A stretch of DNA of 64,000 nucleotides from positions 79,610,001 to 79,674,000 of the forward strand of contig NW_024704742.1 in NCBI RefSeq assembly GCF_018977255.1. The letters run 5' to 3'. Made by a program: the position numbers and the translations under genes. The stretch is from Callorhinchus milii. Lineage: Eukaryota. Each line of letters starts with the position of its first letter. Positions within the stretch are counted from its first letter, which is position 1. The notes below the pieces were generated by a model, which did not search any database, was not told the origin of the DNA, and saw nothing but the letters and a program-made list of their open reading frames with translations. Shown in pieces: positions 1 through 64,000 of this stretch.

Positions 1-1523
1 CTGTTTGCAAGACATTGCTGTGTACAAACTGTCTGCAAGTTTGCTCAGAAAATACACAGCAAATCCTGTGAAGTGCTTGCTCATAATTATTATTGACTGA
101 CTTTATTAGCCGGGATTCTCAGTCTGGTTTGGTATTTTATCAAACTGTACTACACACCAGAAAGGGAAACTTGTTTTTTTTAAAAAAGTTAAAAGTAAGT
201 TTCTGTGCAGTTACAAGCATTTCTCTGAATGTTCTGTGGAAAAGCTAAACAGAGTCCAAACATGGAAGCATTGCAGTGCACTTATGGCATGATTTTGATA
301 AATAATAAATAACTGCAGTCTGTTAAATGTTTCATCAATAACTTATTATTTGTACTTAATTTGCATAACATCCACATTAAATTAGATTTCAGTCAGTGAC
401 ACACAATAGTCTTTAACAATGTAAACATGAAATGTCAAATTTCAGAGCCAGAAGATTCCCAGTCCTATAGGGAAACCACCCTGGTAAGTGCAATGGAATA
501 ACTACAAACCTTAAAAATACAAGCCTTAGATTCCAGTATTTACGGTCCTTGCTCACACTTGAAGAAGACCAGTGGGTGAGGTGCTGGAGGTGAACGACGA
601 GCATAGAACACCACCCCACCCAGCAACAGACAATGGAATAAATCCTGTTTGGTTTGCTCACACGAGTTTACATTATTTATCCCAATGTCTTCTGTGGAGG
701 TTGGGGAACGCAAATGTGTGTGACTTACTAAGGAGAGCAGACTTGAGAGAGGCCTGGTGAAAGGAGAATATGATGGGGCAAAGGAGACACTGCACAATAT
801 GTCCAGAGATATCAGAGTAATAAATCAATCTCTCTTTTTCTTTCATTGATGATACTTCAGATATCAGATTTTCTTTAGCTCTCTGGAAACACAAATTAAG
901 TGGGGTTTTGCTGCACAGAGGGTATCGTTGGGCATATCTTCGTGTCATGCTACACACAACTGTGGAACTCAATACTGGAAGCTGTAGTTGAAGCAAATAA
1001 CAACAAAGTATCTAAAAGAAAACACAATGTGTACATGATGGAGAAGGGAAAAATATAGGAGAGGGGATAGGCAGGGATAGGGCCTTGTGCGGAGTACAAA
1101 CACTGGCAGAGACTAGTTTGGCTGAATGACCTGTCTCAATATCATTTCACTGTATGTTACCTGGCCATAGGCACAGAAATAGGCCATTAAGCCCCCAACT
1201 AGTCCATATTTGTGATTATACTCCACATGTCTCCACCCTTCCTCACCTCCCCTCCCTCTATTCTGCTTGACCACATGTATTATTATTATTATTATTATTA
1301 TGTATGTGTGGTTGGGAACATGCAGCTACAGCCCCCTGAGCTTTATGATAAACAAAGTGTCAGTCCTTGAAGTGTTTCAAATTGCTACGGCAACTCAAAA
1401 CCATTTAAATTTGAGTGTGGATTAAATAATTGAACAACCTATAACTTTGCCTCGGCCAAACCAAGCCATCTGCCAGCCCTCCCATTATTTCTATTGCTGA
1501 GTTCTGGAACAGGAATTTGGGGA

Positions 1524-1561
1524 CCCCTGATTCTTCCCCTGATTCTTCCCCTGATTCTTCC
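1524..1561. repeat. Perfect 12-bp tandem repeat (CCCCTGATTCTT)x3
   Basis: Read directly from the sequence. Confidence 0.95.
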
Positions 1562-3340
1562 AGCTATGCCAAGGCACGGCGATAAATGATTACAGGTTCT
1601 GGCTTGTGACAAGAAAGTTCGTAGCAGGCAGAGGAATGTATTTCTTAACACAGAAGGAAAACAACATGAGTTACCAGGAAAAGATGTTTGAGGCCAGGAC
1701 TCTGAAAGGACACAATCCAAAAGGCTCATGGGCCTTCCTTATCTAGACCAATCTTGTGGGTTAATTACAATAGACTGCAATTGTTAGTCAATGGACACAG
1801 AGAATTTTAAAATCTTTCTTGTACATCTAACATTTTATAATATATAAATATAGAATCATAGAATCTTACAGCACTGAAGGAGGCCATTTGGCCCATTGTG
1901 CCAGCTCTTTGAAAGAGCTATTCAACTAGTCCCGTAGCCCTGCTATTTTTTGCTTATAAAATATATAAATTAATATAATATTTTATAATATATTTATAAT
2001 GATGTGATAAAGCACTATATGAAATGTAAGAATTGGTATTGTTGTTATTTTAAAACAAGACTGACTGCAGTAACATGAAGATTCCTATGCAGAATGTAAT
2101 CTTAAAAGTTCAAGATAAATATTCAGTCAGCTAAGAACAAAATATTCATTCTGCGAAGATTAGCAATTTTTAAAAGTAGAAATGAATACAGGCAAAAACA
2201 GTATATATTCATCTGGATGGGTCCTGGGATTGTACTTACTTATTTACAGCAATACTACTGCTGTATTCTATTAGTTGGGTTATCACTAAGAGCAGGAGCT
2301 CTCAGTATGTGGATTTGTAATGTAGTTTTACTTCAACATTTATTGTATTGAAGTAGCTTTCTGTGATTTTCTTCAGCGACTCTACAAACAATGTAATGAA
2401 AGAGTAGGAACTTGCATTTGTAAAGTGCTTTATCCTGCAAATTGTCTCAAAATGCTTTGCAATAGTTATTCTCAAATGTAGTGAGTAAACAAAACTGTGC
2501 CCAGCAATAGTGTAAATTTATTTATAATATTAATAACCCTTGTGCAATAGCACCTTTCACATTCAGAGGATGTCTCAAAATATTTCATAGGATATATGTG
2601 AAGTGTAGACTCCTTATTTTCAAGGAGTACTCAGAAGCAATTTGCGCATAGCTCTTTCCCCAAATTAGACGAAGTAAATGATCACATTTATTTGGAGAAT
2701 TGTTGGTCAAGGCACCGGAAAAATCTCCCCATTCTTTTTTGAATAGTGTCAAGCGATCTCTACGTCCACTTGAACATGCAGAGAGGACCTCAGTTCAAGG
2801 TCTCACCTGAAGAATGACATTTCTAAAAATGCACCACATCCCCAGCATTGTATTGGAGTGTTAGCTTAGACTTTATGAGTTCAAAGTCATGACATGTAAC
2901 AACAACTTGCATTTATGTGTGCTCTTCACACAGGATAGCATCTCATAGTACTTGATAACATGTATTTGATATAGTCCCTCTCGTGTCAGCATTTCACAGG
3001 ATCCACTGTATAGTGTGGTGACTGTATTTTGTAAATTGGAAACAAGAGAGGAAGGTTCAGAGGAAGCAATGACAATGGCAGTGTTACAACAACTACACAG
3101 ACTTGCATTTGTATAGAGACCTTCATGTAGAATGTCTCAGAGCACTGTATTAACAAAGAGAGGCAAAGAAAGGATTTGAGAGGGAAATAACACGTAGCAC
3201 TGAAGATTAACAAGAGTTGCTGATCATTCTGGCAAATAAGTTTCCCACGTATTAAAAAAAATATTTCAATGACATTAAAATACCTGATCTCAACCCCTTA
3301 AAAATCAGTCATGCTTTGTCAGGCTCTCCTCTCACCCCAA

Positions 3341-3500
3341 AGAGGCTTCCAAACATTGCCTCCGTAAACAAAGAGATTCCCAAACATTCCCACCACAAAC
3401 AGAGATTTGTGGTGTTCCCTCAGCAAACTAATTCCCAAATATTCCCACCGCAAAGAAATTCCCAAACATTCCTTCCACAAGCAAAGAGGCTTGCAAACAT
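3341..3500. repeat. Degenerate ~30-bp minisatellite
   Basis: Recurrent ttcc(c)aaacatt(c/g)c...ca(c/g)aa units. Confidence 0.7.
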
Positions 3501-4030
3501 ACAGATAAAACACACATAATAGTCATTTTCTGTTAAAAATAAATCCACAAAAACACTCTGTCCTGAAGAACCAATAACCTGGTCCAGCTGTTAACCATCA
3601 TCTGTGAATCATCTGAAATGCTGTACACTGTCCAGTGTCTTGGGATGTCCTCCCAATGTGAAAGGTGCTATACAAATGTAATCTTGTTGTTGTTGTTGCG
3701 CTAAGAAACACTACCTTGTCGCTGTTCCAAAATAACCCTCACAATCTTGAATCTGTGCCCTCTTGCCTTGCTGGCTTGGTGTTTCTGAACCTATTTTTCT
3801 TGGTTTACTTAATCCATTTAGTATATTTTACACCTCAATAAATTCAAGGCAACGCATTTCTTTCAACATGGAGATTATTGGTTCCTGGTACTTGTGCAAT
3901 GTTGCTGTCTGTCAAGGAAAACCTCTAGCAATTTTTGGATCTCCAGACTGTGTGCAGATCTCCTGTTGTGGGATTAGCAATTAAACACCTTGATGTTCAT
4001 TGATGTTAAAATAATTAAAGGCCTTTCATG

Positions 4031-4051
4031 CCTTGCTTCCTTCTGTTGCAG
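4031..4051 (+). promoter_or_regulatory. 3' splice acceptor of the LINGO2 coding exon (exon starts at 4052)
   Basis: Polypyrimidine tract ccttgcttccttctgttgcAG just upstream of the start codon. LINGO genes characteristically have non-coding 5' exons and one coding exon. Confidence 0.85.
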
Positions 4052-4072
4052 GCCCTTTACCGAATGGTAGAC

Positions 4073-5890
4073 ATGCTTCACACAGCCATCTCGTGCTGGC
4101 AGCCGATCCTAAGCTTGGCTCTCATTGTTGCTCTCGTGGGCTCCACCATGGGCTGCCCAGCTCGCTGCGAGTGTGCTGCTCAGAACAAATCCGTCACTTG
4201 CCACCGCAAACGATTGACTGTGATTCCTGAGGGCATTCCCATCGAAACCAAAATCTTGGACCTGAGCAAGAACAAGCTAAAGTCCATCAACCCGGACGAG
4301 TTCTTCTCATACTCTTTACTGGAAGAAATCGATCTCAGTGAGAATATAATAACAACTGTGGAACCTGGCTCTTTCAATAACCTTTTTAACTTGCGTTCCC
4401 TTCGTCTCAAGAGCAATCGTCTAAAACTAATCCCCCTGGGTGTTTTCACAGGGTTGTCTAATTTGACCAGGTTGGATATCAGTGAGAACAAAATAGTCAT
4501 TTTGTTGGATTACATGTTTCAGGATTTACACAATTTGAAGTTTCTTGAAGTGGGAGACAATGATCTGGTTTACATTTCGCACCGAGCCTTCAATGGCCTG
4601 CTCGGACTGGAGCAACTTACCCTTGAGAAGTGCAACCTTACAGCAGTACCAACAGAAGCCCTCTCTCACCTCCACAATCTGGTAAGCCTCCGGCTCTCCC
4701 ACCTCCACGTCAGCTCCGTCCACACCTACGCCTTTAAGAAACTCTACCGACTCAAACGCTTGGAAATCGACCACTGGCCCCTACTGGATGTCCTGCCCAC
4801 CAACAGCCTCCATGGTCTGAACCTCACCTTCCTGTCCATCACCCACACCAACCTCACCGCAGTGCCCTACACGGCATTCAGACATTTGTACCATCTTGTG
4901 TACTTGAACCTGTCCTTCAATCCCATCAGCATGGTGGAATCGGGCTTGTTGCAGGACTTGGTGCGGCTGCAGGAGCTGCACCTGGTCAGAGCGCAGTTGC
5001 TGACCATCGAGCCCCGTTCCTTTCAAGGGCTGCGTGCCCTGCGGGTGCTGAATGTCTCACACAACCTGCTGGACACAATGGAGGAGAGCGCCTTCCAGTC
5101 GCTCAAGAGCCTACAGGTGCTGGCCATTGACAACAACCCACTGGCTTGTGACTGCCGCCTCCTGTGGATCATGCAGAGAAGGAAGGCATTGAGGTTTGCG
5201 GAGGAGCAGCCCGTCTGCACATCACCGGAGAGCTTGAAGGGCAAACCCTTCAAGGAGATTGCTGACGTTTTCCTCTCCAGCTACTTCACTTGCCAGAAGC
5301 CCCACATCCAAGAGAAGAAGCTTCAACACCTGTTGATTGAGGAGGGCCAGGTGGCTCAGTTCATTTGTCGGGCAGATGGGGACCCTCTCCCAATTATTTC
5401 CTGGCAGTCCCCGCGCAGAAGGATGATCACAGTAAAATCTAATGGGAGAGCCACAGTCCTGGGTGATGGCACCTTGGAGATCAGGTTTGCCCAGGTTCAG
5501 GATAGCGGGCTGTACCTCTGCATCGCCAGCAATGCTGCCGGTAATGACACTTTGTCGGCCACGCTGTTCGTCAAGGGATTTTCCGAGCATCTGCACGGAA
5601 ACAGCACCTCTCAGTACATGATTGATCTGAACAACACCCACTCAAATGGTACTCATGTGTACATGACGGTGGCGCTGGACCTTAAGACCATCCTGGTGTC
5701 CACTGCCATGGGCTGCTTCACTTTTCTGGGAGTCGTCTTGTTTTGCTTCCTGCTCCTTTTCGTATGGAGTCGGGGGAAGGGCAAGCACAAGAACAACATT
5801 GATATTGAGTACATCCCCCGTAAGACGAACGGGGCCATGTCTGATGCAGATCAAGGAGGCCCGAGGAGGTTCAACATGAAAATGATATAA
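4073..5890 (+). CDS. LINGO2: Leucine-rich repeat and Ig domain-containing Nogo receptor-interacting protein 2; CDS in a single exon (signal peptide, LRRNT, LRRs, LRRCT, Ig I-set, transmembrane helix, short tail)
   Basis: The open 620-codon ORF contains [11 protein letters not shown]...GCPARCEC...[13 protein letters not shown], matching the recalled human LINGO2 N-terminus. It also has [18 protein letters not shown]...[11 protein letters not shown], the TM segment [26 protein letters not shown] and the C-terminus [14 protein letters not shown] 4073 is the orthologous start; an in-frame ATG at 4064 adds MVD. Confidence 0.97.
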
Positions 5891-15038: not shown

Positions 15039-16629
15039 TGGTTTGAGGAGGCAGAAGAGCCTTTGGAGATCTACATCATTGTGATCACAAATTCATAACA
15101 TGCAGATAACCAAATCATGTGTTTTCACATGATTTGTTATTGCTCCACATATAAATAAATGAAAACATTTCATTCCATGAGTGGAGGAACATCTGTGGTG
15201 TTTCTTAATGTCTGGTCCTTGTGCTAAATTTGAGTAATGATCATAATGAACACTCTAAGAATATTGCACATTTACCCCAATATATCTATTTCTGAACCTA
15301 AGGGGTCACTAATTTTGAGTTAGTAATTAAGTTGTTTAATAGATTATGATAACACCAGTTCCCTTCCTTCCTTTCTCCACCTTACTCAAAGTCTGTAAAA
15401 GCCACAATATTCCATGCCCTTGTCCATTTTATATGGTCATATATAAATAACATACTTACAACTTGGACTATTGTGTGGAAGTAAAATCAGCTTTTATTGA
15501 ATCGCTGGCTGTAACCGCCAGTTTCTATGCTCTAAAGGACGTCTGTGACAATGAACTTTGTGAGACCTAAGATGGTTACATTATTATTTTAATGAATTTT
15601 ATTTGAAACAGCAGCTCCTTCATTGTCAATATATCTAGAATCATTCATACTTAGAAAGGCTTCTATATTGCATAGGTCACATTAACTAATACAACCTACA
15701 GAAATGTTACTTAATTTTTAAATTGCTAATGCTCAGTGGTTTGGGCTTCAGTTTATGTCCTTCAAAAATATTCATTACAATGTGTTTTGTATTTAAGTTC
15801 ATATTTTTGATTTCATAATGTGTTTCTGTGGCATGGATTTGCACACTGCCTTTTTTCTTCTGGGCCCTGGTTCTAATCCAGTTAAGATGTGATGGAATAA
15901 AAGGCACCTTTTTACCTGTATGTTTTAAGAGTTCTACATGCATTGAGTTGGGGAGGACTCAATCCAGGTCCCAATGGATTTAGGTCTGAAAGCACAAAAT
16001 TACCCATCATCTAGCCCAGCATTCAGAAAGGTCAAGTGAACGGTAGAGATAGAAGACAGAAAAATCACACTGAAGTGATCGGGAGGATTGTCTGCGGTTA
16101 TGCGGGGGCGGAGGGAGGTGGGTGGAGCTTGTGGGGAGATGGGGAAGAGGGGAGGGAGGAGGGCAGGGCAAAATGGGACTCTGTTACTCAGTGTGTTCCA
16201 TGTAGTAATTTGTTAATATGGGATACGGGTCTATTCTGCTATGCTTGGAAAGTCTAGCAATTTTTTGTTTCAATGAGCTCCCTATGTTCCCCTACGTGCC
16301 GTGTATCTTATTTTTTCAGGATCAACTTAAGAGGGAAATTAAGGACATGTTTTTCTGTAACATATACAAAGCATGTTCTAAGTTAGCACCCATGTCTTGC
16401 AAAACTTTCCAGATTTGCCAGGTTTCCCCTTACTGTTTCTATTTATCCTTTTGGTCATGCTATAAAATCATCTATATCCACCTGTAGTGTTTTTTTATCG
16501 CAGGATCATTAATACAGTGAGTCTCTATTAACACCTAATTTGTAAAATCTGAGGGAAATTATAATATTGATCAATACCCTAATGTGGGACTCCAAATAAT
16601 ACATGAGAACTGTCAGTTACTTAGTGTTG

Positions 16630-17850
16630 TGACCAGGGCTTTATCTGTGATCAGGGCTCCCTCTGCCTGCTCATCCTCCTGGATCTCTCTGCCGCATTTG
16701 ACACAGTCAACCACGCCATCCTCCTTCACCGCCTCTCTTCCCTCATCCACCTTAATGGGACCACATTCAGATGGTTTGAATCCTACTTAACCAACCATCC
16801 CCACTTCTCCTTGGCAAATGGTTTATCCTCCCGACCCCACTCAGTCACTGGGGTACTCCAGGGCTCCATCTTTGGCCCTCTTCTTTTTCTCAACTATATG
16901 ATTCCTCTTAGTAATGTCATCCACAGACACTGGGTAAACTTTTACATGTATGCGAATGACATACAAATCTACTTCGCCTACACCACCATCGACTTCAGGT
17001 CTGCCGATGTTCTATCAGCTCGTCTGGCATACAACAGGGCCTGGATGAGTGTAAACTTCCTGCAGCTGAATGTGCACAAGACAGAAACAATACTCCTTGG
17101 ATAACTTCTTCACTCCTGTGGTTCTGAACTCCTTAACCTCCGTGGGCTCTCCTTCACACTCACCAGACCAATGCGCAATCTAGGCGGCTAGATTCCCCCC
17201 CTTCCCCACATCCGGTCCCTGACCAGGACAGCCTTCCTCCACCTCCGCCATATTGCCCCCCTTCAACCATACCTTACCCTAAACTCAGCTGAAATCCTCG
17301 TATTTGCGTTTGTCACCTCCCGCCTGGATTACTCAAATGCACTCCTCGCTGGTCTCCCCAGCTCCACTATTCAAAAATTCCAGCTCATTCTGAACTCTGC
17401 TGCCCGCATACTGACCCGGAACAAACTCCGTACCCACATCTCACCAGTTCTGGCCAGGCTCCACTGTTTCCCCATTACCGAATGGATCAACTTCCAGATC
17501 CTCACATTCGTGTTCAAATCCATTCACACCCTGGCACCTTCCTACCTCTCCGACCTCCTCACTCCCAATCCACCATCCTGCCCTCCACTTGACTGGCACC
17601 AGCCTCTTGCTTGTCCCTCGCACCTTCCTTTCCACCATTGGAGATCGCAATTTCAGCAAGTATGTCTGAAACTGTGGAACACTCTTCCCTCAAGCCCTTT
17701 GCCTTGCCCTCTCTCTCCCCTTTATCCAGTCCCACCTGAGAACCCTCCTTTTCGACTGTGCTTATTGTCACCTCTCCATCTCCAGCTCAGAGTCAAGCTT
17801 CGCCACTGTTAAGCGCTCTGAGATGTTATCCTGTGTGGAGGTCGCTATAT
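16630..17850 (+). mobile_element. L2-clade LINE 3' fragment (RT to tail)
   Basis: GVLQGSIFGPLLFLNYM...YANDIQIY...NFLQLNVHKTE. Confidence 0.9.
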
Positions 17851-23539: not shown

Positions 23540-24060
23540 GTGTCTCTTTGTGTCTATGAGTGCATGTTTGTGTTTCTCTCTGAGAATGTCTCTCTGTGTC
23601 TGTGAGTGTGTGTCTCTGTGTCTGAGTGTGTGACTCTCTGTTTGTGAGTGTGTGTTTCTAAGTGTCTATGAGTGTGAGTCTCTTTGTGTCTATGAGCGTG
23701 AGTATGTGGCTCTTTGTGTCTATGTGTGTGTGTGTGTGTGTCTCTCTCTGAGAATGTCTCTCTGTGTCTGTGAGTGTTTGTCTCTCTGTGTCTGAATGTG
23801 CATGTCTTTCTGTCTGGAGCGTGTGTCGCTCCGTGTATGAGAGCGCGTGTCTCTCTGTCTATGAGTGTGTGTTTCTTTGTGTTTATGAGTGTGTGAGTGT
23901 GTGTGTCTTGCTCTCTCTGAGAATGTCTCTCTGTGAGTGTATGAACCTGAGTGTACGAATCTCTCTCTGTGTCTGTGAGTGTGTGTGTCTCACTTTGTGT
24001 CTATGAGTGTGTGTGTCTCTCCGTGTCTATGAGCGTGTCTGACTTGCATTGTGTCTGTAT
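23540..24060. repeat. Compound (TG)/(TC) microsatellite-minisatellite, resuming at 25025-25080
   Basis: Repeated units such as tgtctatgagtgtgtgt and ctctctgagaatgtctctctg. Confidence 0.9.
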
Positions 24061-25025
24061 CTTCCGCAGACACAGGGTAAACTTCCACATGCATGCGGAT
24101 GACACACAAATCTACTTTGCCTCCCCCAGTATCGACTCCAGGCCATCCTATGTTCTATCAGCTTGTCTGGCGGACATCAAGGTCTCGATGAGCGCAAGCT
24201 TCCTGCAGCTGAATATGGACATGATGGAAGCCATACTCCTTGGCTCCGTTAATGTCTTCACTCCTGCAAAACTGAACTCCTCCCTGGGCTCTCCCTCAGA
24301 CTCACCAAACCAGTGCGCAATCTAGGTGGCCAGTTCGATCCCCAGCTGTCCTTCCTTCCCCACATCCAGTGCCTGACCAGGACCGCCTTACTCTACTCCC
24401 TCATATTGGCCACCTCTGACTGTACTGTACTCCATGTGCAGCCAAAACTCTTATGCATGCATTTGTCATCTCCCGCCTGGATTACTCAAACACTCCTCGC
24501 CGGTCTCCCCAGCTCCACTATTCAAAAAATCCAGCTCATTCAGAACTCTGCTGCTCACATACTGACCTGGACCAAACTCCATACCCCCATCTCACGAGTT
24601 CTGACCAGGCTCCACTGGCTCCCCATCACTGAACGGATCAACTTCAACATCCTCACACTCATGTTCAAATGCCTTCACTCCCTGGTACCTCCCTACCTCT
24701 GCGACCTCCTCACTCCCTAATCCATCATCCGGCAACTCCAATCAACTGGCACCGGCCTCCTGCTTGTCCCTCACACCCTCCACCCGACCAATGAAGGTTG
24801 CACATTCAGCCACTACGCCCCAAAACACAGGAACACTCTCCCTCAATCCCTGTCACCTTTTTCAAGTCCTGCTTGAAAATCTTCCTATTTGACCATGCTT
24901 ATGGTCACCTCCCGCAGCCCAACCCTCACTCCCCACTCCCTCACCCCTGACTCGGAGTCAGGCTCCGCCACTGTTAAGCACCCTGACACGCTATCCTGAG
25001 TGGAGGGCGCTATGTAAGTGCAAGT
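24060..25025 (+). mobile_element. L2-clade LINE 3' fragment
   Basis: FHMHADDTQIYF, IQLIQNSAAHIL, LHWLPITERINF. Confidence 0.9.
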
Positions 25026-39134: not shown

Positions 39135-41600
39135 ACAACAACAACAACTTGGATTTATATAGCGCCCTCCACGCCAGACGGCGTCGCAGAGCACTTCACA
39201 GTAATGGATCCCGGGGCCGAGCCAGGGGGAGGTGGAGGAAAGTGACCAAAGGCGCGGTCAAAAAGAAAGGTCTCAGCAGAAACCTGAAAATAGGAAAAGA
39301 GGGAGCGAGGCGAAGGGAGTGAGGAAGGGAGTTCCAGAGCCTCGGGGCATAGTGGCTGAAGGCACGGCTGCCGAGGGTGGAGCGGAGGATTCGGGGGATG
39401 AGGAGGAGGCCAGACCCAGAGGAACAAAGGCAACGGGGACTGTTTTGAGGAGAGAGGAGGTCAGAGAGGTAGGGGAGTGCAGAGGAGTGCAGGGACTTGA
39501 AGACGAGGGTGAGGATCTTGAAATCGATCCTCTCTGGGACACGCAGCCAGTGCAGTCTGGCAAGGATTGAGGTGATTGGGGAGTGGAGTTTGGTGCAGGT
39601 GAGAATGCGGGCGGCAGAGTTTTGAATAATCTGGATTTTGTGGATGGTAGTGGAGGGGAGACTGGCGAGGAGGGTGTTAGAATAGTCCAGCCGAGAGGTG
39701 ACAAAGGCATGGACTAGGATTTCAGCGGTTCCCGGAGAGGGGTATTGGCAGAGATGGGCGATGAGTCGGAGGTGGAAGAAAGTGATGCTGGTGAAGGACT
39801 GGATGTGGGGGAGGAAGGATAATTGGGGGTCGAAACTGATGCCTAGGTTGCGTATGGGTTCAGAGAGTTTTAAGGGAAGGTCGGGTAGGTGAGAACCCTG
39901 AGATTTTAGACATTGATGAGAGCGAAAGAGTATGGCTTCTGTCTTGTCAACTGAAGGAAATTTGCACTCATCCAGCCCCTGAGGTCTGACAGGCAGGCTG
40001 ACAGAATATCAGGGGACTGGGGGTTGCAAAGAGAGATGGAAAAATAGAGTTGGGTGTCGTCCGCTTATATGTGGAAATATACCCTATGTCTGTGGATGAC
40101 ATCTCCAAGAGGGAGCATATAGATCAGAAAGAGTAGGGGGCCAAGGATGGATCCTTGGGGTACCCCACAGGTAACAGAGTGAAAGCGGAAGGAGAAGCCT
40201 TTTGTGCAGATGTACTGCTGGCAGCTTGTGAGGTAGGACTCGAACCGGGCGAGTGCGGTCCCATTCAGGTGGATGATGGAGGAAAGACGGTGGAGGAGGA
40301 TGGCATGATCGACTGTGTTGAACGCGGTGGAGAGGTCCAGGAGGACAAGAAGGCATAGGGAGCCCTGGTAACAGATAGAGAGGATGTCGTTTGTGACTTC
40401 CACAAGCGCAGTCTCTGTACTGTGGGCAGGGCGGAAACCGGACTGGAGGGGTTCGAAGAGGGAGTGGGAGGAGGTGTGCACAAAGTTGATTGGCAACAAC
40501 GCTTTCTAGGACTTTTGTGAGGAAGGGCAGGTTAAAAATACGGCGGTAGTGGCTGGGGTTTGAGGGGTCCAGGGAGGTTTTTTGAGGAGGGGGTTGATGA
40601 CAGCAGTTGTGAGGGAGGAGGGACTGATCCGGAGGAGAGGGACTGGTTGATGACGTCAGCCAGTAGTGGGCAGAGGAGGGGGAGCTGTGTGACCAGTAAG
40701 TTGGTGGAGAGGTGGTCGAGGCAGCAGTTGGTGGGTTTCATAGTGGTGATAGTAGGTGAGAGGGAGGAGGGAGAGATGGGGAGGAAGGAATGTAGGATGG
40801 GGGTGGAGGTGGGAGCAGATGATGGGGAAGGTGAGGGGACAGAGAGGGTGTGGTGGTGGATGACAAGAGGCAGGTGGATGAGGCTGCCTGGTGGATATAT
40901 AATAATAATAATCCTTGCATTTGATATAGCACTTTTCACGTCTTCTTGACCTCTCAAAGCGCTTCACAGAATATGTTGTAAAGTGATTTGACTATATTTG
41001 TGGACGAGATGTTATGAATTTTAGCTGAAAAGAAGTCCATGACCTCCTCGCACTTGGCATTTGATATGAAGATTGAGGAGACCTGAGGGGGTGCACAGAG
41101 AAGGTAGTGGGTGGTGGAAAAAAAGATTTTAGGGTTGTATTAGCCTCCAAGATGATATTGGAGTCGAAGGCCGTTTTTGCGCGTGTCAAAGATTGACGGT
41201 AGCTGTGGAGATGCTCGAGCCACAGTTGGTGGTGAACTGTCAAGCCAGTTTTCCACCATCGGCACTCGAGCAGACGGGTTTGGGTTTTTTGGCGGCGGAG
41301 ATGGTTGTTGTACCAGGAGAATTGGGTGGGTTTGGAGATGGTCCTAGATTTTAGAGGGATGAGGGAATTGAAGTTGGAGTAGAGGCGATCATGGAACAGC
41401 TGGATGGCTGCTTCAGGATCTCCGTGGGTGGAAGGCCAGAGGGATAGGATGTTTGATGATGTGAGGGCCTTTGTGAGAGTCTCAGGGTGTAGCCTTTTCC
41501 AAGGGCGGTAGAGCATGGTTGAGGGCTTGGTGGAGGAGAGAGGGATGTGAGAGGAGAAGGAGATGAGGAAGTGGTCCGAGATGGCCTTGTCCACTATGCA
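39135..41600 (-). mobile_element. L2-clade LINE, 5'-truncated (endonuclease end, RT, 3' tail), degenerate; SINE fragment inserted at about 40896-41003
   Basis: ISDHFLISF (endonuclease), QSGFRPAHSTETAL, LLDLSTAFNTVDH, GVPQGSILGPLLFLIYM, ADDTQ; (TTG)n tail. Confidence 0.92.
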
Positions 41601-43709
41601 AACAGCTATCAAGAGGTGCATCATCAATATATTCAAGATAACATCATATATCAAAGCATCTCTGTAAATCCTAGATTTAATACATTTGATTTCATATGAT
41701 ATGCAGAACGCATATATGAGATTCTAATTCTTCATCGTAAAAATCAGCAGTACTTTACAAGAGTAAGAATTATTTGATCTGTTTATATGTCTTCTGCCAG
41801 ATTGTATGACTCATTCTGGCTATTCTGAGCATTTTATGTACCATGTTAGTACTTTACTGAAGCAGCTGTTCATATTGTATTGCTATTTATGTAAAACAGC
41901 TTCTTGATACAGCTCCACATAATTGTATTGGAACATATTTGCCAATGACAACAGAACCTTTACTCATAGTCATAGGCCCATAGAAATGTACACCACAAAA
42001 GGCTATTCGGTCCATCGTATCTGTGTTGGATCTCTGAAAGAACAATCTATTAGCCCCATTTATCTGTCTGTTCCCCTTAACCCTAAAAAGTATTCCTTTT
42101 TAGATATGAATCTACTTCTCCCTTGAAATCTAGGTATAGATCCTGTCTTGACCACTGCACATCAGCGGGGCATTCTACATTATAACAATTCTGTGTAAAA
42201 TAAAATCCTCCTAATCTCCCTCTATCATTTTTTTTAAAAACTGATGCGCTCTTGCCACTGACTCACCAACCAGTAGAAAATCTTTCTCTATCAAACTCCC
42301 TCAACATTTTAAAGATCTCTTTGCACTTCCAGAGAATTGCACATTGGAACACTGACGGAGTGTGTGCCTCAGAGCTTTGAGAAAGTCCTTGGAGGGCAGC
42401 TTCAATCTGTAAGCTTCTCACCATTGGCCTGCACAAGCCCCCTCACCAAGAAGCTTACAGGAACTCAGAATTAATGGTCTCCCTTTAACTTTTACTGTTA
42501 TTACGCCCAATTCCTCTAGTCTCTGATCATAGGTCAGACCACTTTCTGTCCTGAACTCCTGCATAGTGTTATAGCCTCGAAACAGCCAAACACCACCATT
42601 CTTATTGTTGCTGGTGGAGAGCAAGTGTTTGAGTGCTATGTCATGACATGACTTGCAAACAATGGTGATTGCCTGAAGCTTCAGATAGCTTTGGGGAAAA
42701 TCATTCTGCAGCAGTCAGGAGGGGGATGCTGAGTTAACATTCCAGTCAATAATGAAAGCCGGTTTTGCGTCACAATTTTCAGTGATGTGATAATCAACAC
42801 TCGAGATTATCACATAACACACTATTTTATTATTAGTAATAGTAATATGAGTAATAATATTTGTTGTGTTTGATATAGTGCTTCATTACATTATTCACTT
42901 TACAGGACATACTGTAAAGTTGCATAACTGTATTTTACGGGCGAACACAACAGCCTTTTGCATGTAGCAATGTCCCACAAACAACCATGGAGTGAGTGAC
43001 CAATTTTATTTGGTTCATTGCTGGCCGGGACCCTGAGAGAAATTTCCTTCTCTTTTCAAATAGTTAGTGTCTGGACAGGTAGATGGGACCTTGGTTTAAC
43101 ATTTCATCCGAAGGAGAGAACCTTTGCTGATGCAGCACTTCACCTCGCTGTGCTATTCAAGAACTGGCTAAACAACTGACACGTCAATAACCATAAACAA
43201 AAAGCCCTTAATCCTTCCAATGAACGACACAAATTGTAGTCCAATGTAAGCCCCCCACATTAGGTTCTAAATTTCATCCAGTTTTAGCCGATAAAACCAT
43301 TTTGACTTGAAATTTAACATTTTAGGTCGATAACATTTCGTCAATGTTCCCAGCAACTTCTGTGTTTATTTCAGATTTCCAACATCTGCAGTATTTTGTC
43401 TTTTGAAAGGATCTTGAAATCGATCCGTTTGGTAATTAGGAGAGTCAGTGGAGCCTGACAAGGACTGGTGTGTTAGGGGTACAGAGTTTTATGCGGGTGA
43501 GTATCTGGGTGGTGTAGATTTCAAATAATTGGATTGTGTGTATCAGGGAGCTTGGGTGACCAGCGAGGAAGCATTAGAATTGTCCAGCTGGGAAGTGACG
43601 AAAGCATGGACAAGGGTTTTGGCTATCCCTGAAATCTCTTGGTGTCAAGCTTGAGTGTGATTCACAGTGGGTTAAGTACAATTTTATTGAAGCTTTGCTT
43701 CTTCATGAA

Positions 43710-44770
43710 AGCAGAAAGCAGAGAGTAGTGGTGAACGGTTGTTTTCTGTCAATTACTGGAGGGAAGTGTCAAGTGGTGTCCCCCAGGGATTGGGATCATT
43801 GGTGTTTGGATCTGTGTAAATGTCCTGGACTTGGGTATAGGGAGTACAATTTCCAAGTTTGCAGATGATACTAAGCTAGGAAAAGTAATAAACAGTGAGG
43901 AGGATAGTAACAGACTGCAAATAGACATAGACAGACTGGTAAAATGGGCCGACATGTGGCAGATGAAGTTTAATGTGGAGAAATGCAAAGTGATGCATTT
44001 TGGGAGGAAGAATAAGGAGAGGCAATATAAGCCGATGGTACAATCTTAAAGGCGGTGAAGGAACAGAGAGACCTGGGGGTTCATATAAGTAAATCTTTGA
44101 AGGTGACAGGACAGGTAGATAAAGCTGTTAAAAAAGCATACGGCATACTTGGCTTTATAAATAGGGGTATAGAATACAAAAGTCAGAAAGTTATGATGAA
44201 ACTTTATAAAACACTGGTTAGGACTCAGCGAGAGTACTGTGTTCAGTTCTGGGCACTACAATTTAGGAAGGATGTCAAGGCATTGGAGAGGGTGCAACGG
44301 AGATTTACCAGGATGGTACCAGGAATGAGAGACTTCAGTTATCAAGAGTGGCTAGAGAAGCTCGGATTATTCTCCTTGGAGCAGAGAAGGTTAAGCGGTG
44401 ACTTAATAGAAGTTTTCTAAATTATGAGGGGATTCGATAGGGTGAATAAGGAAAAATTATTTCCACTGGTGGGTGGGTCGGTAACCCGAAGGCACCAATT
44501 TAAAATAGTTGTTAAAAGAAACAGAGGGGAGGTTAGGAGAATTTTTTTTCACACAGCGAGTTGTTTGGATCTGGAATGCATGATGGAAGCCGATTCAATA
44601 ACAACTTTTAAGAGAGAAATAGATAATTACTTCGGGAGGACAAGTTTGCAGGGTGTGGGAATAGAGCAGGGTAGTGGGATTGATTTGGATAACTCTTTTC
44701 AAAGAGTCGGCACAGATACGATGGGCCAAATGGCCTCCTTCTGTACTGTATAATTCTATAATTCTATGAC
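43710..44770 (+). mobile_element. CR1 LINE 3' fragment (RT C-terminus and 3' UTR)
   Basis: SGVPQG, SKFADDTKLG, WADMWQMKFNVEKCKVMHFG, RDLGV, LEKLGLFSLEQRRL; ATTCTATA tandem tail. Confidence 0.93.
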
Positions 44771-53300: not shown

Positions 53301-53597
53301 ATTGTGCCATTACTTTGGGGGGTGGACATTGTGCTTTTTTGGTCAGCCAGTCACCCATCACAGTAACAAGTTGCTTTTTAAATGAGTCTAGTGTCCTGGT
53401 CTCCACCAACTTTCCTGGCTACCTGCTCCAACCGTTGATTAGCCTCTAAGGAAAAAAAACATTTACTAATATATGCCTTGAAATTGCCCTTTACAACTCT
53501 AAATGTCCTCTTGTTCTGCTATCTTGTTGTATTCTGAAGCATTGATCTAGGTGTTGATATGATGCACTAAAATGTGCCAGACAAATTTCAGTTGTAC

Positions 53598-53842
53598 CTT
53601 TCAACTTTGACTTAGCCTGTTGCAAATGATCTTTCAGAGTAAGTGCTGTGTTATAGTTGTCTGATGCCTTTTCTTCAAGAGCAGCTAAGGAGTCATTCCT
53701 AAACATTATCATGGCCTGCTGGATAGTTGTGTTTGCTGTCTGGACGGTTGTCATTGATGCTTCCATCATTTTGGTAATGTTGCTAAATGTCTCCATGACA
53801 TTAATAGCATCTTTGCCATGTTGCCCAGCCACCATGAAAATC
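53598..53842 (-). CDS. Open laminin-alpha domain II exon (IFMVAGQHGKDAINVMETFSNITKMMEASMTTVQTANTTIQQA...QQAKSKLK)
   Basis: Acceptor tttacatttatttcctAG, donor AAG|GTACAA; 245 nt, phase 2 in (matches the previous exon) and phase 1 out. DAINVMETFSNITKMMEAS resembles LAMA3 AVDAATAYENILNAIKAA. Confidence 0.8.
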
Positions 53843-54012
53843 CTAGGAAATAAATGTAAATATGATCAATTTTCTTTTTAAGGGACTTGTCCTCTCATCT
53901 ATGGTATAGACCAATGAGATAGAATGATGGCATTGCTAACAAAAGCAATCCTGAAAGTGCATTTTTCAATATTTCAAGGGTTGAAAACATCAGCCCCCAC
54001 CCTCCCACCCCT

Positions 54013-54108
54013 CTCTCCATAGATGCTGCCTGACCTGTTGAGTGTTCTCAGCAACATCTGTGTTTTTTTATTTCTGATTTCCAGCTCCTGCAATATTTTG
54101 CCTTTTGT
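54013..54108 (+). repeat. Partial copy (right arm plus tail) of the Penelope-type element; another at about 43343-43405
   Basis: ctccatagatgctgcctgacctgttgagtgttc...tttccagc...tattttgccttttg matches 59370-59457. Confidence 0.75.
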
Positions 54109-57197: not shown

Positions 57198-58509
57198 NAA
57201 AAAACTGCAGAACAGGACTTAACGATACTGCCATTCAGCATGTCATGACCACAATGTACTTTACATTAACTGACAAAACTAAATACATTAAAAGGCACAA
57301 TAATATAAATAATGATTTTGAATTTGGGAAGCAGAGTGCATCCCTCCAAGGAGAGAATGCACATTCCATTCCAGGCACAGGAAAATTTCCATATGTAGGT
57401 GGCATACATATGAGGAACACTCAGACTGATTTGGATACTCTTAAGCATAATGATGGTTTTATGCTTGTGTCAGACATCCAGCTGATAAAAAAAACAATGA
57501 TGATGTATGTAACAAAACATATTTTGCAATTGAAACAGCAGCAAATATTTTACTTTTAAAATGTGAATGCACAAAGCCTTAATTTACTTTTCATTTACCC
57601 CTAGAGTCCAATACTCTCATCAGCAATGTTCAATTTAAATGTTGAAGATATTTTGAAAAATGGTTCCATGTGCAGTCCAAGAATGAAACCAAACATAAGA
57701 AACAGTGCCAATGCTGCAAACAAATAAAATCCCCAGCAATATTCATAATAGCTTATCATGAGACAATTGGAGAAAAAGTACAATTAGAACATACTGCAGA
57801 AAAATATTATAAAAGGTTTACATTTGATGAAACTCCAATTATATTTTTGAATAGTGAGAGACAATTCTGTGTCTCCATGTCTGAAAGGAAATATGAGTCT
57901 TATGCGTACAACCATTCATCAAGCTTAGTATTCAGTGCAACACATAATGTGAGTTACGTCAGTGACAGCATGATGTTCACAGATGGCTAGCTGGCTGGCT
58001 GAATGAATAGACTTCCAGTTACCCCTTTCCAGAAAAATTATAAAGGATTGAATGGACACCGGTTTAGTAAAAATGAATCAAGACACTTGAATTGTTGAAA
58101 AGAACAAATTATTGTTCACAACTGAACAAATGCAAGAATAAACAAAAGCTCAATAGCTCATTTTGAATTATTTACTCTGTGTGGTAAAGTAGCGGCTGAA
58201 AGTGGTAAGAAATACATTTTGTTATCTTGTGACTGTATCTTGCCAGGCATTGCCTTTCACAGTGTTTATTGTCTTGAGTTTACTTCCTGACACAAGTATG
58301 AAAATGCACTCTTTACCTTTTAGGTAGTTCAGGTGATTGAGTTGTGAAAAGCGTCCAGATGGGACAGGTTTAATTCCTAGTGGACCCGTCTAACATTCAC
58401 AAATGATAAAATGAGCATTGTGGCCCAAACTCTTTTTCAATAAGAACACTTTTCTTCATGATAGATTCTTCAAACTGATTAATGAGTGACTGTGGTTACA
58501 CTATGTTAC

Positions 58510-58669
58510 CCTTCTATTCTTCAAGCCCGTCATTACGTGTCATTCAATGTTTGTTTAACCAACAAGTGGCCAAAGTATGGTTAAGCAGCTTCTCAATCTT
58601 TTATTCAGTGAACTCCAGTCTAAATCTGGTTTACCTCCTGGGTGGAGATTATCTCCTAACTGGATAGTT
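58510..58669 (-). pseudogene. Decayed laminin coiled-coil (domain I) exon (TIQLGDNLHPGGKPDLDWSSLN/KIEKLLNHTLA...)
   Basis: Strong acceptor tttcttcttctgtctttcttaacAG and donor G|GTAACA. A frameshift and stops are needed to read through. Confidence 0.45.
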
Positions 58670-59267
58670 CTGTTAAGAAAGACAGAAGAAGAAACATGGC
58701 AAATGGAGTGTAAAATGGTTTAGATTGCTAAAAGTAGCAAGGCAAAAGAAATGAGATGAAGTGGAAAAGAAAGTCATAATAATGATTGCACTTGATATAG
58801 TGCCTTATCACTTTGTTAAGACGTCCCAATAGCTTCACAGAGTATACTGTAAAGTGAATTGACTGTGTATTTTGTGGGTGAAACACAGCGACCAATTGCA
58901 CACAGCAGTGTCCCACAAACAGTTGTGGATTGAAGTGACCAATTTATTTTTATTAATTTATTTTTTTGAAGGATTTATTACCCCTGGAAACCAATCCGCC
59001 AATTGACTAACAACCATTTTCCTACTTAGTGCTGGGTAAACAGAGGCATGTGGAGTAAGGAATCTTTCCAAACATTTCATCCCACCCGGGAATCAGCTTC
59101 TCTCGCTTGCGAAGCAACTGCTCTAAGCAATATGCTACAGGACTCCACCCATGTGGGACAAGGCCACTGAAAATAAAATCTGCTCGTGGACATACATGGC
59201 TATATGTAGATTGCTGATATCTAAATAGGAAAGAACAGTCATGGAAGCAATGTGACTAGAAATATTA

Positions 59268-59456
59268 ACAGAAGCCGCTGGGAACACTCAGTAGGTCAGG
59301 CAGCATCTATGGAGAAACAAAAGTTCTGACGAAGGGTCGTGGACCCGAAACGTTGACTCACTTTCTTTTCTCCATAGATGCTGCCTGACCTGCTGAGTGT
59401 TCCCAGCGACTTCTGTTTTTGTTCCAGATTTCCAGCATCTGCAGTATTTTGCGTTT
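59268..59456 (+). mobile_element. 189-bp Penelope-type palindromic non-autonomous insertion carrying a hammerhead ribozyme
   Basis: Perfect 15-bp direct repeat TGACTAGAAATATTA at 59253-59267 and 59457-59471 (target-site duplication). Inverted arms at 59267-59317 and 59367-59417. Confidence 0.85.
59322..59358 (+). ncRNA. Minimal type I hammerhead ribozyme motif
   Basis: Stem I AGUU/GACU; core CUGACGA(A); stem II GGGUC-GUG-GACCC; GAAA; palindromic AC-GU stem III; cleavage triplet GUU (59352-59354). Confidence 0.75.
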
Positions 59457-60100
59457 TGACTAGAAATATTATTGGTTAGATAAGATTTTTCCAGACACAG
59501 TTGAATCTCCTATGAGATGGACAATTCTTAAAGCACAATGTTATCCCATGTTCTGAAATGATCGTAACATGTCAAAAAACACAGATAATTCCAGTATTTG
59601 TTTTTCCTGCCTGCCTGACCAGTTGGATGGTAAAGATCTCAGGGTACTATTCAAAAAGAGAAGGGTGTTTCTCCTGGTGACATGGTCAACAATTCCCCAA
59701 ATAAAATGGGTTACTCACTTAATGGCTTTTTGTGAGACATTGCTATATGTGAACTGATTGCTGCGTTCGGCTACAAAATACACAGTAAATCCTGTGAAGC
59801 TATTGAGCCATACTGACGACATGATAAGGCACTGTATCAAATGCAAGGATTATTATCACTGAAATAGGGAACGAAAGTACAATGAAAGCTTGTAGGACTG
59901 AACCATCATAAATCAACCTTGAACAATCAGGAAGGAGCAGTCAGCTATACAGCAATGACCTAGATTTGAAGTAATAATAAGTTGCTTTTGTTTCTGCTTC
60001 ATTTTCCAGGTGAGTATTCAGCTTGGAAATTGAGGATTTTCAAATTCAGGATGTATTTCAATTATCTTTACTGAACAAAAAGTCCTTTGGTTTTATTCAC

Positions 60101-60216
60101 CATCATAAAGCCTTTTTCGTAGGAAATGCAATGTGTTGTTCTGCATTCAATTGTTTGAAGAAATGTTGCTTTACATTCTGAGTTCTGAGGCAACATTCAG
60201 CAACTGTGTACATAAA
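60101..60216 (-). pseudogene. Candidate decayed coiled-coil exon (LCTQLLNVASELRM*SNISSNN*MQNNTLHFLRKRLYD)
   Basis: Bounded by AG and GTGAAT, with heptad-like composition and two stops. Weak similarity only. Confidence 0.25.
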
Positions 60217-61460: not shown

Positions 61461-62992
61461 CTGTGTCCAGAAATATGAGGGTCATACAAAAGTATAGGAG
61501 GTTTGAAATGCAGCAATGCGATGCAGTTGTTATCTCATACCTTCAGAACTGATGTGTAAAAGTCACAGTGGCTAGTTTGGTTGTGATGCAACTAGAATGC
61601 TATTTGTATTACCATACCTGAATAAATGATACCAACTGTGCTGTCAGGATCAATTTTCATTTTTATTCAAGAGCTGATCACATCCTTGTAGTACTTCAAG
61701 ATATACATTTTTAAAGAAGCTGCATAATCTTTGGAGATAGGTGAAGCATTTTTAAAAATATAATTAGCTTTGATCCCTCATACAGCCTTGAGGGGTCAAC
61801 AAAAAAGAATACCGTTTCTTTTACTTGAGACTGTGAATCAAATTCCCCACTGAGTAAGAGTTACCCTGAAGAGGCTATGAAAGGAATATTTTGAAATTTT
61901 GCAAAATATCTGTGCTGCAAAAGAAAGACAAGCTTTGAAGGAAAATTATCATTTTTTAAACACCAGTCATTAGGTGTTGGGAGTTAAAAGAAACAAAGAA
62001 TTGGTTTCATGTGTATTTTAAAAGCAGGAGTAACCATTCAGTCTGTGCCACCAATCAATTGATCAATCAATTCATCAATCAGTCTCTCCACCCACTCATC
62101 CATTCATCTACCCATCCATCTCCAAGCCAATATAAAACTGACAAATATTTCAATCCACTGTGTGAGTCATTCCATAGTTAAAGCAGAATGGGTCCAGAGT
62201 ATTACAGTTGTAAAAATACTGTGGTTGTACATTTTCATATATAGAATAATTGCCAAATACAATTATAATGCAGTAATTTTGTAATCAATCTCTCTCTTTC
62301 AAATTTCTCAATCTATTGTCTATCATTTGTCTTCTGAGCCAGCGCATTCCACATTCTCAAAACCTTTCATGAAGATAATGTTTTCTTAATTCAATTGTAA
62401 ACAGCTCTAATTTTAAGATCTCAATTCCATGGATGTTAAATTGTATGACAAATGGTCCAACAAATAAGACCAGGTGAGAGAGAGTGAAATTCCACCTAGG
62501 CCCATATTTACTCTATTTATATGTAGCATTTCAGCTGCCTATTTGGCAAATTGTTGAATTCAGTCTCAACTTTGTAGTTAACCCTGTAATGATGAGTCAA
62601 CAGACTCGCTAACATTCTGCTCAAGTGTAGATGTCATTGTGATCCATCTGATTTTGTGCGTGCACGAGAATATGTCTTTAGAAGTTTACATTCTCTGAGT
62701 TGTTGGTCTCAGGTGGGGATGCATGGGGAGGCTAAATTGCCCCTGGTCTTTCTTGGAGTAGAGTAGAGAAAAACAGCTTCTACAACATATTATTAGAGCC
62801 CTGGGATGCTGCAGTATTTCCAGTATGATTTTCAGTTTCCAGATCCTCAAAGTAAAAGCAACATGAATTATACAGAATATCAGCATTCACTCAATTTGCA
62901 CATTAGAAAGAACTGGGACATCAATTAATTGTTTGATCATTGCATGAACTGTTTCTAAGAACTCGTAAGAATAGCATCAAATTTAATCTCAC

Positions 62993-63080
62993 CACATGGC
63001 CCCTCTCTGTAGTTTACATCATCTATGGCAATGTTTGCTTGACTGGTCATCGAGTTTTCATTGTAGCCCTCCAAAATGAT
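62993..63080 (-). CDS. Exon encoding the C-terminal end of a MAM domain: IILEGYNENSMTSQANIAIDDVNYREGPC
   Basis: Acceptor tttcctgttcatttttgcAG and donor G|GTGAGA; 88 nt, phase 0 in and phase 1 out, open frame. Matches the MAM C-terminal signature (I/V)xFE...xxIAIDD(I/V)xxxxGxC. Confidence 0.85.
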
Positions 63081-64000
63081 CTGCAAAAATGAACAGGAAA
63101 GTTTAACAAAAAATATTATACTTGCAATTAACAAAATAATGACAATACTTGAATTTGATAGAGCACATTATTATGTATCGATCACAAGATTTATTGTGGC
63201 GCGAAGGTGAACACGGCAGCCAATTTGCACACAGCAATATCCCACCATCAGTCACAAGTGAATGAATAATTCTATCTGTCAGGTTTTTGGCCAGGTCATT
63301 GGAAGAAGCTCCATTTTCTTTGAATACCGCCATAGGATCTTTAATGTCTACAGGTAGACAGGTGCAGCACTGCATTGGAATATCAGCCTAAATTAGATGA
63401 GTTCCAAGTCCTAACATTGGGCTTGAACCCACAACCTTCTGACTCCAAGGAGGAAGTGCAATCAACTGAGCAAGGCTGATGCACAATTTACAGGGAGCCA
63501 CCTCCCTTCCAAGCTAAACAACAGCTGTATGGATTAAAATACTTTACGAAGCAAAAACTTGTACCGCACAGCGTGCTTGGCATTGGTGAATCTGAAATTC
63601 ATTCATTCTGAGAGTGAATGATTATTCCGTTGTCTAGGAACCTAATAATTATGCAAGGAATAATTAACTGCAGTAAAATACAAACTAAATGCAGGTAATT
63701 ATCACTTGATGAAGAACATATTTACTTTATATGAAAAGTCACGGAACAAACACATGACATTATTGTATGCACATAAGATCAGAATAGAACAGGTGGCTAA
63801 TACCATTTTGTAACATGCCATTGTTTGCCATCTCTAATGCACTCTGCTCACCAATGCTGTCATTTGCCTATATGATTTACTCTTCAAATGTTATTTTGGT
63901 GTACACCTGGCTCAGTTCATAGCATTCTTGCTTCTGAGTCAAAATGCTGTGGGTTCAAACCCTATGTTGAGATTTTAAAATCATATAGTGTAAGCTGATG

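Follow-up and report, generated by a model that had tools for sequence, protein, structure and literature searches.

The genome of Callorhinchus milii carries, in the stretch of 64,000 nucleotides that was analysed here as a whole (the window), an insert of 189 bp composed of two inverted arms with a hammerhead ribozyme motif at the apex, which raises the question of whether such a structure moves as a unit or is what remains of a larger element, and how its arms came to stand head to head. An earlier note, made from the letters of the window, had regarded it as a mobile non-coding hairpin served in trans by the reverse transcriptase (RT) of a Penelope-like element (PLE). The sequence marks the insert as a young stub with two arms, left by a Neptune-type PLE, and does not support a mobile hairpin family. 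An inverted end, a one-sided tail and a target-site duplication (TSD) together are the PLE layout already published in the accessible parts of PMC3846280 and PMC8557442, and a single insert is ordinary transposon debris; the interest is carried by the counts across the family, which bear on two open questions in PLE biology, namely the origin of the inverted ends and tail and the role of the conserved hammerhead.

Structure of the insert

Family positions are numbered from the first base of stem I, so that +1 is window position 59322. The insert and its flanks are made up of the following parts:

59253..59267, plus strand: left TSD of 15 nt, from a direct repeat search
59268..59324, minus strand: short (S) arm, inverted family positions +39..+96, lacking the core of the ribozyme; departs from the family majority at 4 of 58 columns
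59322..59324, no strand: 3-nt overlap of the arms (microhomology), +39..+41 read backwards against +1..+3, from the sequence
59322..59456, plus strand: long (L) arm, spanning +1..+135 of the family; departs from the family majority at 2 of 135 columns
59322..59358, plus strand: minimal type-I hammerhead motif with 4-bp stem I, CUGACGA, an extra A, 5-bp stem II, GAAA and a loopless palindromic stem III
59323..59323, plus strand: family position +2, where the 5' ends of copies pile up
59418..59456, plus strand: one-sided tail of 39 nt, +97..+135, between two putative RT start sites (about +100 and +136)
59457..59471, plus strand: right TSD of 15 nt, from a direct repeat search

The structural description in the earlier note is borne out. 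The 15-nt direct repeat at 59253-59267 and 59457-59471 is exact and encloses 189 bp, the arms at 59267-59317 and 59367-59417 (51 bp) show two differences, one U-G pair and one C-A mismatch, and the inverted repeat can be followed over 58 nt with 93% identity. The fold of the insert has a z-score of -16.7, and equal stability was reached in none of 200 shuffles. At the apex, stem I (59322-59325/59355-59358) is followed by CUGACGA, an extra A, a 5-bp stem II with a 3-nt loop and GAAA-C-G-U-U; the core recognised in the note (CUGANGA/GAAA/NUH) is a complete minimal type-I motif of the PLE kind, and the cut predicted from the motif, between 59354 and 59355, is the one that had been placed 3' of U59354. 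The apex is the sole match of a hammerhead pattern search on both strands of the 64-kb window. The Rfam check proposed in the note turned out negative, with no hammerhead among the eight matches with E<=10 in 58500-60200. A microRNA precursor was rejected, the score for Rfam MIR1507 (34.9 bits against a gathering threshold of 73) being that of a generic hairpin match. The ribozyme fold within the insert differs from the minimum-energy fold and lies above it, as the core is taken up in pairing with the palindromic stem III: imposing stems I and II costs 6.4 kcal/mol, and the pairing probability of stem I is about 0.005.

The right junction of the insert is spanned by contigs of two other runs (X12 and X14), and among the 15 of 21 joints listed for four runs none skips the insert; the left flank (59172-59249) is without cover in any of them. 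The copy diverges by 1.9% from the family majority, a closeness equalled by only 2 of 85 sampled copies (median 8.0%), which agrees with the young insertion proposed in the note.

The parent family and the status of the hairpin

The right arm belongs to an abundant family, three different motifs of which have 900, 3,077 and 3,453 exact matches in the 992-Mb genome. For closer analysis, loci were drawn from the head of the match lists of two patterns, 100 matches each: 89 for a downstream pattern (+50..+76), with 11 omitted as partner arms or as already included, and 90 for a core pattern. After removal of four duplicates, 175 insertions were analysed, all from the first 70 Mb of one contig and, owing to the exact-match patterns, biased towards young copies. 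Among the 158 loci whose left edge could be reached, 66 have a TSD of 9-17 nt, against 3 of 470 shuffled pairs, and 28 of the 66 measure 14-15 nt, so that the 15-nt TSD in the window is ordinary for the family. The target consensus (47 sites) is weak and roughly symmetric, with A before and T after the TSD.

That the 189-bp hairpin itself is a non-autonomous element which moves as a unit with the help of a PLE enzyme is very hard to sustain. About 20 of the best 30 genome matches do align over most of the 189 bp, but these have different inner junctions, and the junctions vary from copy to copy, other full-length look-alikes included. The junction of left arm and ribozyme has three exact matches genome-wide (the overlap at 59322..59324 recurs at two other loci, and L004 has it with mismatches), against 900 to 3,453 for the family motifs; the three copies are unlike in outer end and in the letters of their variants, and since the junction, a microhomology of 3 nt, falls at the commonest stop, it may have arisen repeatedly. 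Arm length varies continuously across 66 copies and a 39-nt tail lies outside the arms; together with the rare and variable junctions, this is not what a hairpin family or MITE would present. Non-LTR retrozymes, according to the accessible part of 10.64898/2026.07.22.740005, resemble the insert in being non-coding, PLE-derived and provided with a type I hammerhead, but they consist of head-to-tail tandem units with a ribozyme each, whereas the insert is single and head-to-head with one ribozyme. Because the parent copies have a pyrimidine-rich PLE 3' region before +1 and a stem I that pairs over 4 bp only, the insert is taken to be a truncated copy of the RNA end of the PLE rather than the separate non-coding element of the note. 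The long paired arm of the hairpin arose at insertion, and the 50-bp stem is a by-product of this event.

The link to a Penelope RT could be substantiated. The segment lies in sense downstream of the RT at 21 of 30 RT-bearing loci, only two of which have an inverted arm upstream. A 470-aa frame at locus L223 contains YIDD, a Cys cluster, YIG and conserved His residues, and at L223 and L064 the RT is followed by C-terminal GIY-YIG motifs in order. As the Pfam matches of the parent are weak (RVT_1, E 0.0027; GIY-YIG, E 0.13; both below cut-off) and a PDB search with the L223 frame gave no match, it is the order of the motifs and the architecture that carry the assignment to the PLEs; Pfam had no match for four short frames of L064. 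At L261 and L255, the segment extends into the beginning of the ORF, with the ATG at +170 in L261. It occurs both after the RT and before the ORF, as a partial tandem at these two loci, and therefore is, as judged from this arrangement, the 3' terminus of genomic copies and at the same time the 5' leader of the next ORF, that is, the pLTR of a PLE. The inverted 5' copy, the one-sided tail of 30-40 bp and the TSD are also present. A C-x4-C-x2-C motif in L064, kept in part in L223, points to the Neptune clade, for which a Zn-finger-like Cys motif between RT and endonuclease is described in the accessible part of PMC8557442.

Some further features of the family were observed. A branch-point, a pyrimidine tract and an AG are conserved just before the PLE start codon at 29 of 30 loci (L261:1089-1125; L271-L300 around 1460-1500), and an out-of-frame upstream ATG is located at about +57 in the leader. 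An intron in the leader is possible; neither a donor nor a spliced copy was found for it. Seven loci (L279, L284, L285, L288, L290, L292, L295) have internal deletions in which 30-120 nt of the ORF start are joined directly to the 3' region, which suggests frequent template jumps from the downstream pLTR to the ORF start. L281, L282 and L283 are near-identical, lie within 150 kb on contig C1 and each have a 5'-truncated PLE body, a local segmental duplication. In a second subfamily (L130, L138, L153, L156, L160, L167, L200), an A-U pair closes stem II beside the core, the loop differs and stem I has a U-A pair; its end positions are the same as in the rest of the family.

Ends of the copies and a proposed mechanism of insertion

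The 3' ends of the sampled insertions are bimodal, with short ends at about +100 and long ends at about +136, and the loose ends of DNA contigs of run X11, which stems from the same species and family and thus confirms the count rather than providing a second independent case, are found at +99 (173) and +136 (272). When the 79 two-armed insertions were scored for the pairing of their ends, leaving out 11 with an outer end below +84, 66 of 68 combined a short with a long arm, two combined two short arms and none two long arms (p 8e-18 against a 50:50 null), while one-armed copies comprise 51 short and 45 long ones. Subfamily type agrees between the arms in all 28 scorable pairs, and 54 minor letters are common to both arms, against a mean of 13.3 and a maximum of 35 in 500 shuffles; both arms appear to be derived from the same source element, though later gene conversion could add shared letters. 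Neither arm is simply a copy of the other, because the short arm reaches further 5' in 32 of 66 insertions and the long arm in 22, with 12 ties.

The inner ends are concentrated at the first bases of the hammerhead. Exactly at +2 end 14 of the 89 arms in the sample that was not selected on the core, and within -2..+4 end 28 of 51 arms at risk, against 1 of 83 within +32..+37, around the predicted cut. Genome-wide, going back one base from +2 to +1 leaves 1,552 of 2,315 matches, a loss of one third, and no more than 356 retain 14 upstream bases; loose ends in X11 peak at +2 (62 contigs) and +3 (31). At three loci, the copy switches at about +1 to the ORF-start region of a different template. 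A candidate second stop at about -112 proved to be an artefact of a rearranged reference; with other references, the upstream ends are spread from -12 to -1027.

A TATA-like motif at -29/-28, or within 5 nt of this position owing to small indels, is present in 29 of 30 copies and is unique within 400 nt of a parent copy, the pattern having been chosen after inspection of the sequence. The pile-up of 5' ends lies 29-30 nt below this motif, and the bases around +1 fit the initiator consensus. It speaks against a transcription start here that homology ends at +2 and not at +1 (55 of 72 have G at +2, 28 of 72 have A at +1) and that no cap-derived extra G stands out at the 5' ends of copies. In one parent copy, the ribozyme is predicted to fold from an RNA that begins at +1, with a stem I probability of 0.24-0.32, and no longer once 60 upstream bases are included. 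TATA and Inr elements have been proposed in a pLTR in the accessible part of PMC3846280. We are inclined, with some reserve, to regard +1/+2 as the transcription start of the PLE RNA. Two contig sets guessed to be RNA, and a single-cell run from a different organism, listed no pile-up of read starts and, among the 15 of 81 joints listed, no GT..AG joint; these results are taken to speak neither way on the start site.

These insertions were probably formed by priming of both nicked target strands on uncleaved PLE RNA and end-joining of the two cDNAs head to head. We infer the two-strand priming, its coupling within one complex and the start site as follows. The GIY-YIG domain would nick the two target strands about 14-15 nt apart, and one 3' end would prime at +136 and the other near +100 on RNA of the same source element. 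Both cDNAs would then run toward the 5' end of the RNA, likely the transcription start at +1/+2 set by the TATA-like box at -29, which would make the hammerhead the first thing transcribed. The ends would be trimmed and joined by microhomology or with filler; in the window, the 3-nt overlap at 59322..59324 would be the joining point, which by chance left an intact hammerhead at the apex. Loss of one cDNA would leave a one-armed stub, and longer copies would come from read-through RNA primed at its downstream pLTR. Two arms that overlap in sequence need either strand displacement or two RNAs. In the in vitro study of PMC11167929, a PLE protein nicks and extends both strands and starts at two internal sites which bound the tail, without need for ribozyme cleavage; the start site showed no strand difference, so that this system gave no sign of coupling. 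For the more specific proposal that one complex primes both strands in a coupled and asymmetric manner (+136 and about +100, never both at +136), on an uncleaved RNA which starts at the first hammerhead pair under a TATA/Inr promoter, the case for and the case against seem to us evenly balanced.

The origin of the inverted ends has also been sought in self-priming of an antisense template by fold-back, with the tail left by endonuclease resolution, as hypothesised in the accessible parts of PMC3846280 and PMC8557442. Such a process would explain why both arms have an identical source, a resolving cut made with a stagger would likewise yield one long and one short end, and about 40% of the junctions have an overlap or no filler; yet it requires pairing at the junction, and most junctions carry filler. 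It would also require a fixed antisense 3' end at +2, and in 15 copies both arms end at the same point (within -3..+5) without a templated loop, 13 of them with 1-32 nt of filler. Priming in vitro takes place on nicked DNA with sense RNA (PMC11167929). On the whole self-priming, which fits the fillers and the double stops poorly, is improbable. Still less probable is a template produced by the hammerhead, cutting as a dimer, and used in cleaved or circularised form, as proposed in the accessible part of PMC4209133. The intact core and the preservation of the stems across subfamilies speak for it, but both bases across the predicted cut are kept in 3,224 of 3,453 copies (93%, the remaining 7% being lost over two steps), and a religated circle, although compatible with such read-through, would not stop at +2. 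The predicted ribozyme cut site is not a stop for copies, and cleaved RNA serves rarely if ever as template.

Two-strand priming might also be combined with a different nature of the stop at +2, namely a splice-related boundary (either an acceptor preceded by a pyrimidine tract, or an intron's 5' end, the intron extending as far as the acceptor-like site at +167) or a pause of the RT on a longer RNA. There is a pyrimidine tract with AG at +1/+2, the acceptor-like site just before the ATG is conserved at 29 of 30 loci, and about 40% of the copies that reach +2 continue upstream (20 of 51 pass -8). In Drosophila virilis, an intron ends at helix I (accessible part of PMC4209133), and transcription starts about 120 nt upstream from a TATA-less promoter (likewise in part, PMC4209133, PMC2377424). 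Nevertheless, no exon is shared upstream of +3, and the fillers have only chance-length matches to the upstream 1.5 kb of the parent. Fillers at +2 are as long as fillers at internal breaks (p 0.42), and two-armed copies make up an equal share of both (48 of 87 against 28 of 50), which argues against a hidden host exon. A donor at +2 would be very weak against the donor consensus. Spliced copies were found at none of 30 ORF-start loci, and L272 and L291 start at +2 and cross +167 into the ORF; these two copies also weaken an intron lariat (+2..+167) as template. A boundary or pause at +2 is thus rather unlikely, though less so than self-priming or a cleaved template.

The stems of the hammerhead are kept across copies (91.7% of stem cells are paired), and therefore selection is taken to have acted on them in the source elements, while the genomic copies decay: of the 51 sampled copies which span the motif, 6 have it intact, as does the window copy. 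The first pair of stem II is changed from G-C to A-U in 7 of 43 rows, all from one subfamily, so that this was probably one event.

Known systems and surroundings of the insert

The insertions of Pen2a_Av and other endonuclease-positive (EN+) PLEs, as described in the accessible parts of PMC3846280 and PMC8557442 (Fig. 2 legend), have an inverted, 5'-truncated pLTR copy about 37 bp shorter, a one-sided tail of 30-40 bp and a TSD, like the insert, and share with the present family the hammerhead and a putative TATA and Inr in the pLTR. By contrast, the insert consists of the pLTR end only and has no ORF, the TSD mode is 14-15 nt here and 8-10 bp there, and the copies here number in the thousands so that their ends can be counted, unlike those in these papers, whose antisense self-priming is not favoured by the copies analysed here.

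Poseidon PAc of Anolis carolinensis (PMC11167929) also has two internal RT starts bounding the tail, nicking and extension of both strands, AT-rich targets and no requirement for ribozyme cleavage, but its ORF starts within stem II and not at +170, the Neptune-like Cys cluster before the endonuclease sets the present element apart from it, and neither coupling nor a stop at stem I is described. A one-sided tail such as that of the insert is described there and in the accessible part of PMC8557442. Metazoan PLE hammerheads of the minimal type, in the accessible part of PMC4209133, agree with the present one in a stem I of 4-5 bp, an extra base before stem II and a palindromic loopless stem III, and in occurring mostly as single dispersed copies and close opposite-strand pairs; they differ in stem II (7-8 bp, against 5 bp here) and in the G10.1-C11.1 pair, which is A-U in one subfamily here.

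In twin priming of L1, both target strands prime, and a 5' inversion is joined by microhomology and flanked by a TSD of about 15 nt, as here. The two parts of an L1 inversion are without overlap, and the poly(A) tail serves the first primer, whereas both starts are internal and fixed in the present family and overlapping arms are the usual case; an L1-like stop near +87..+106 is seen in about 9 of 66 long arms.

A literature search, which covered largely open-access main texts without supplements, yielded no publication stating a coupling of start sites or a stop at stem I. If the proposal holds, head-to-head inverted ends, the one-sided tail and solo pLTRs would be explained by a single mechanism, the antisense self-priming model would be replaced, and the role of the ribozyme would shift from the making of RT templates to control of the capped 5' end of the mRNA. 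For the in vitro system, the counts across the family predict that the start sites of the two strands are coupled, that synthesis runs off at +2 and that cleaved RNA is left unused.

The window copy is without an upstream promoter and is probably inert. To judge from the surrounding sequence, the insert is probably intronic to a gene on the minus strand, in which case its ribozyme would be in antisense, and no function is expected of this copy.

Several other features were observed in the window. Older one-armed fragments of the PLE terminus, without ribozyme core, are located at 54014-54107 (plus strand, 84% identical) and 43345-43406 (plus strand, 89%). Copies of an abundant 320-bp repeat, of which the window has at least 10, flank the insert in opposite orientation at 58768-59123 and 59766-59860. 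Pieces of a minus-strand gene are found at 53491-53865 (a coiled-coil-like frame) and at 62955-63167 (with a weak MAM match at 62958-63167, E 0.048). On the strand opposite to these pieces at 53-63 kb, a single open frame of 623 aa (4019-5890, plus strand) contains leucine-rich repeats, an Ig domain and, towards the C-terminus, a hydrophobic stretch, and resembles a gene of the LINGO family. Decayed RT fragments of LINE type are present at 16625-17812, 23951-24720, 39196-41723 and 44031-44420.
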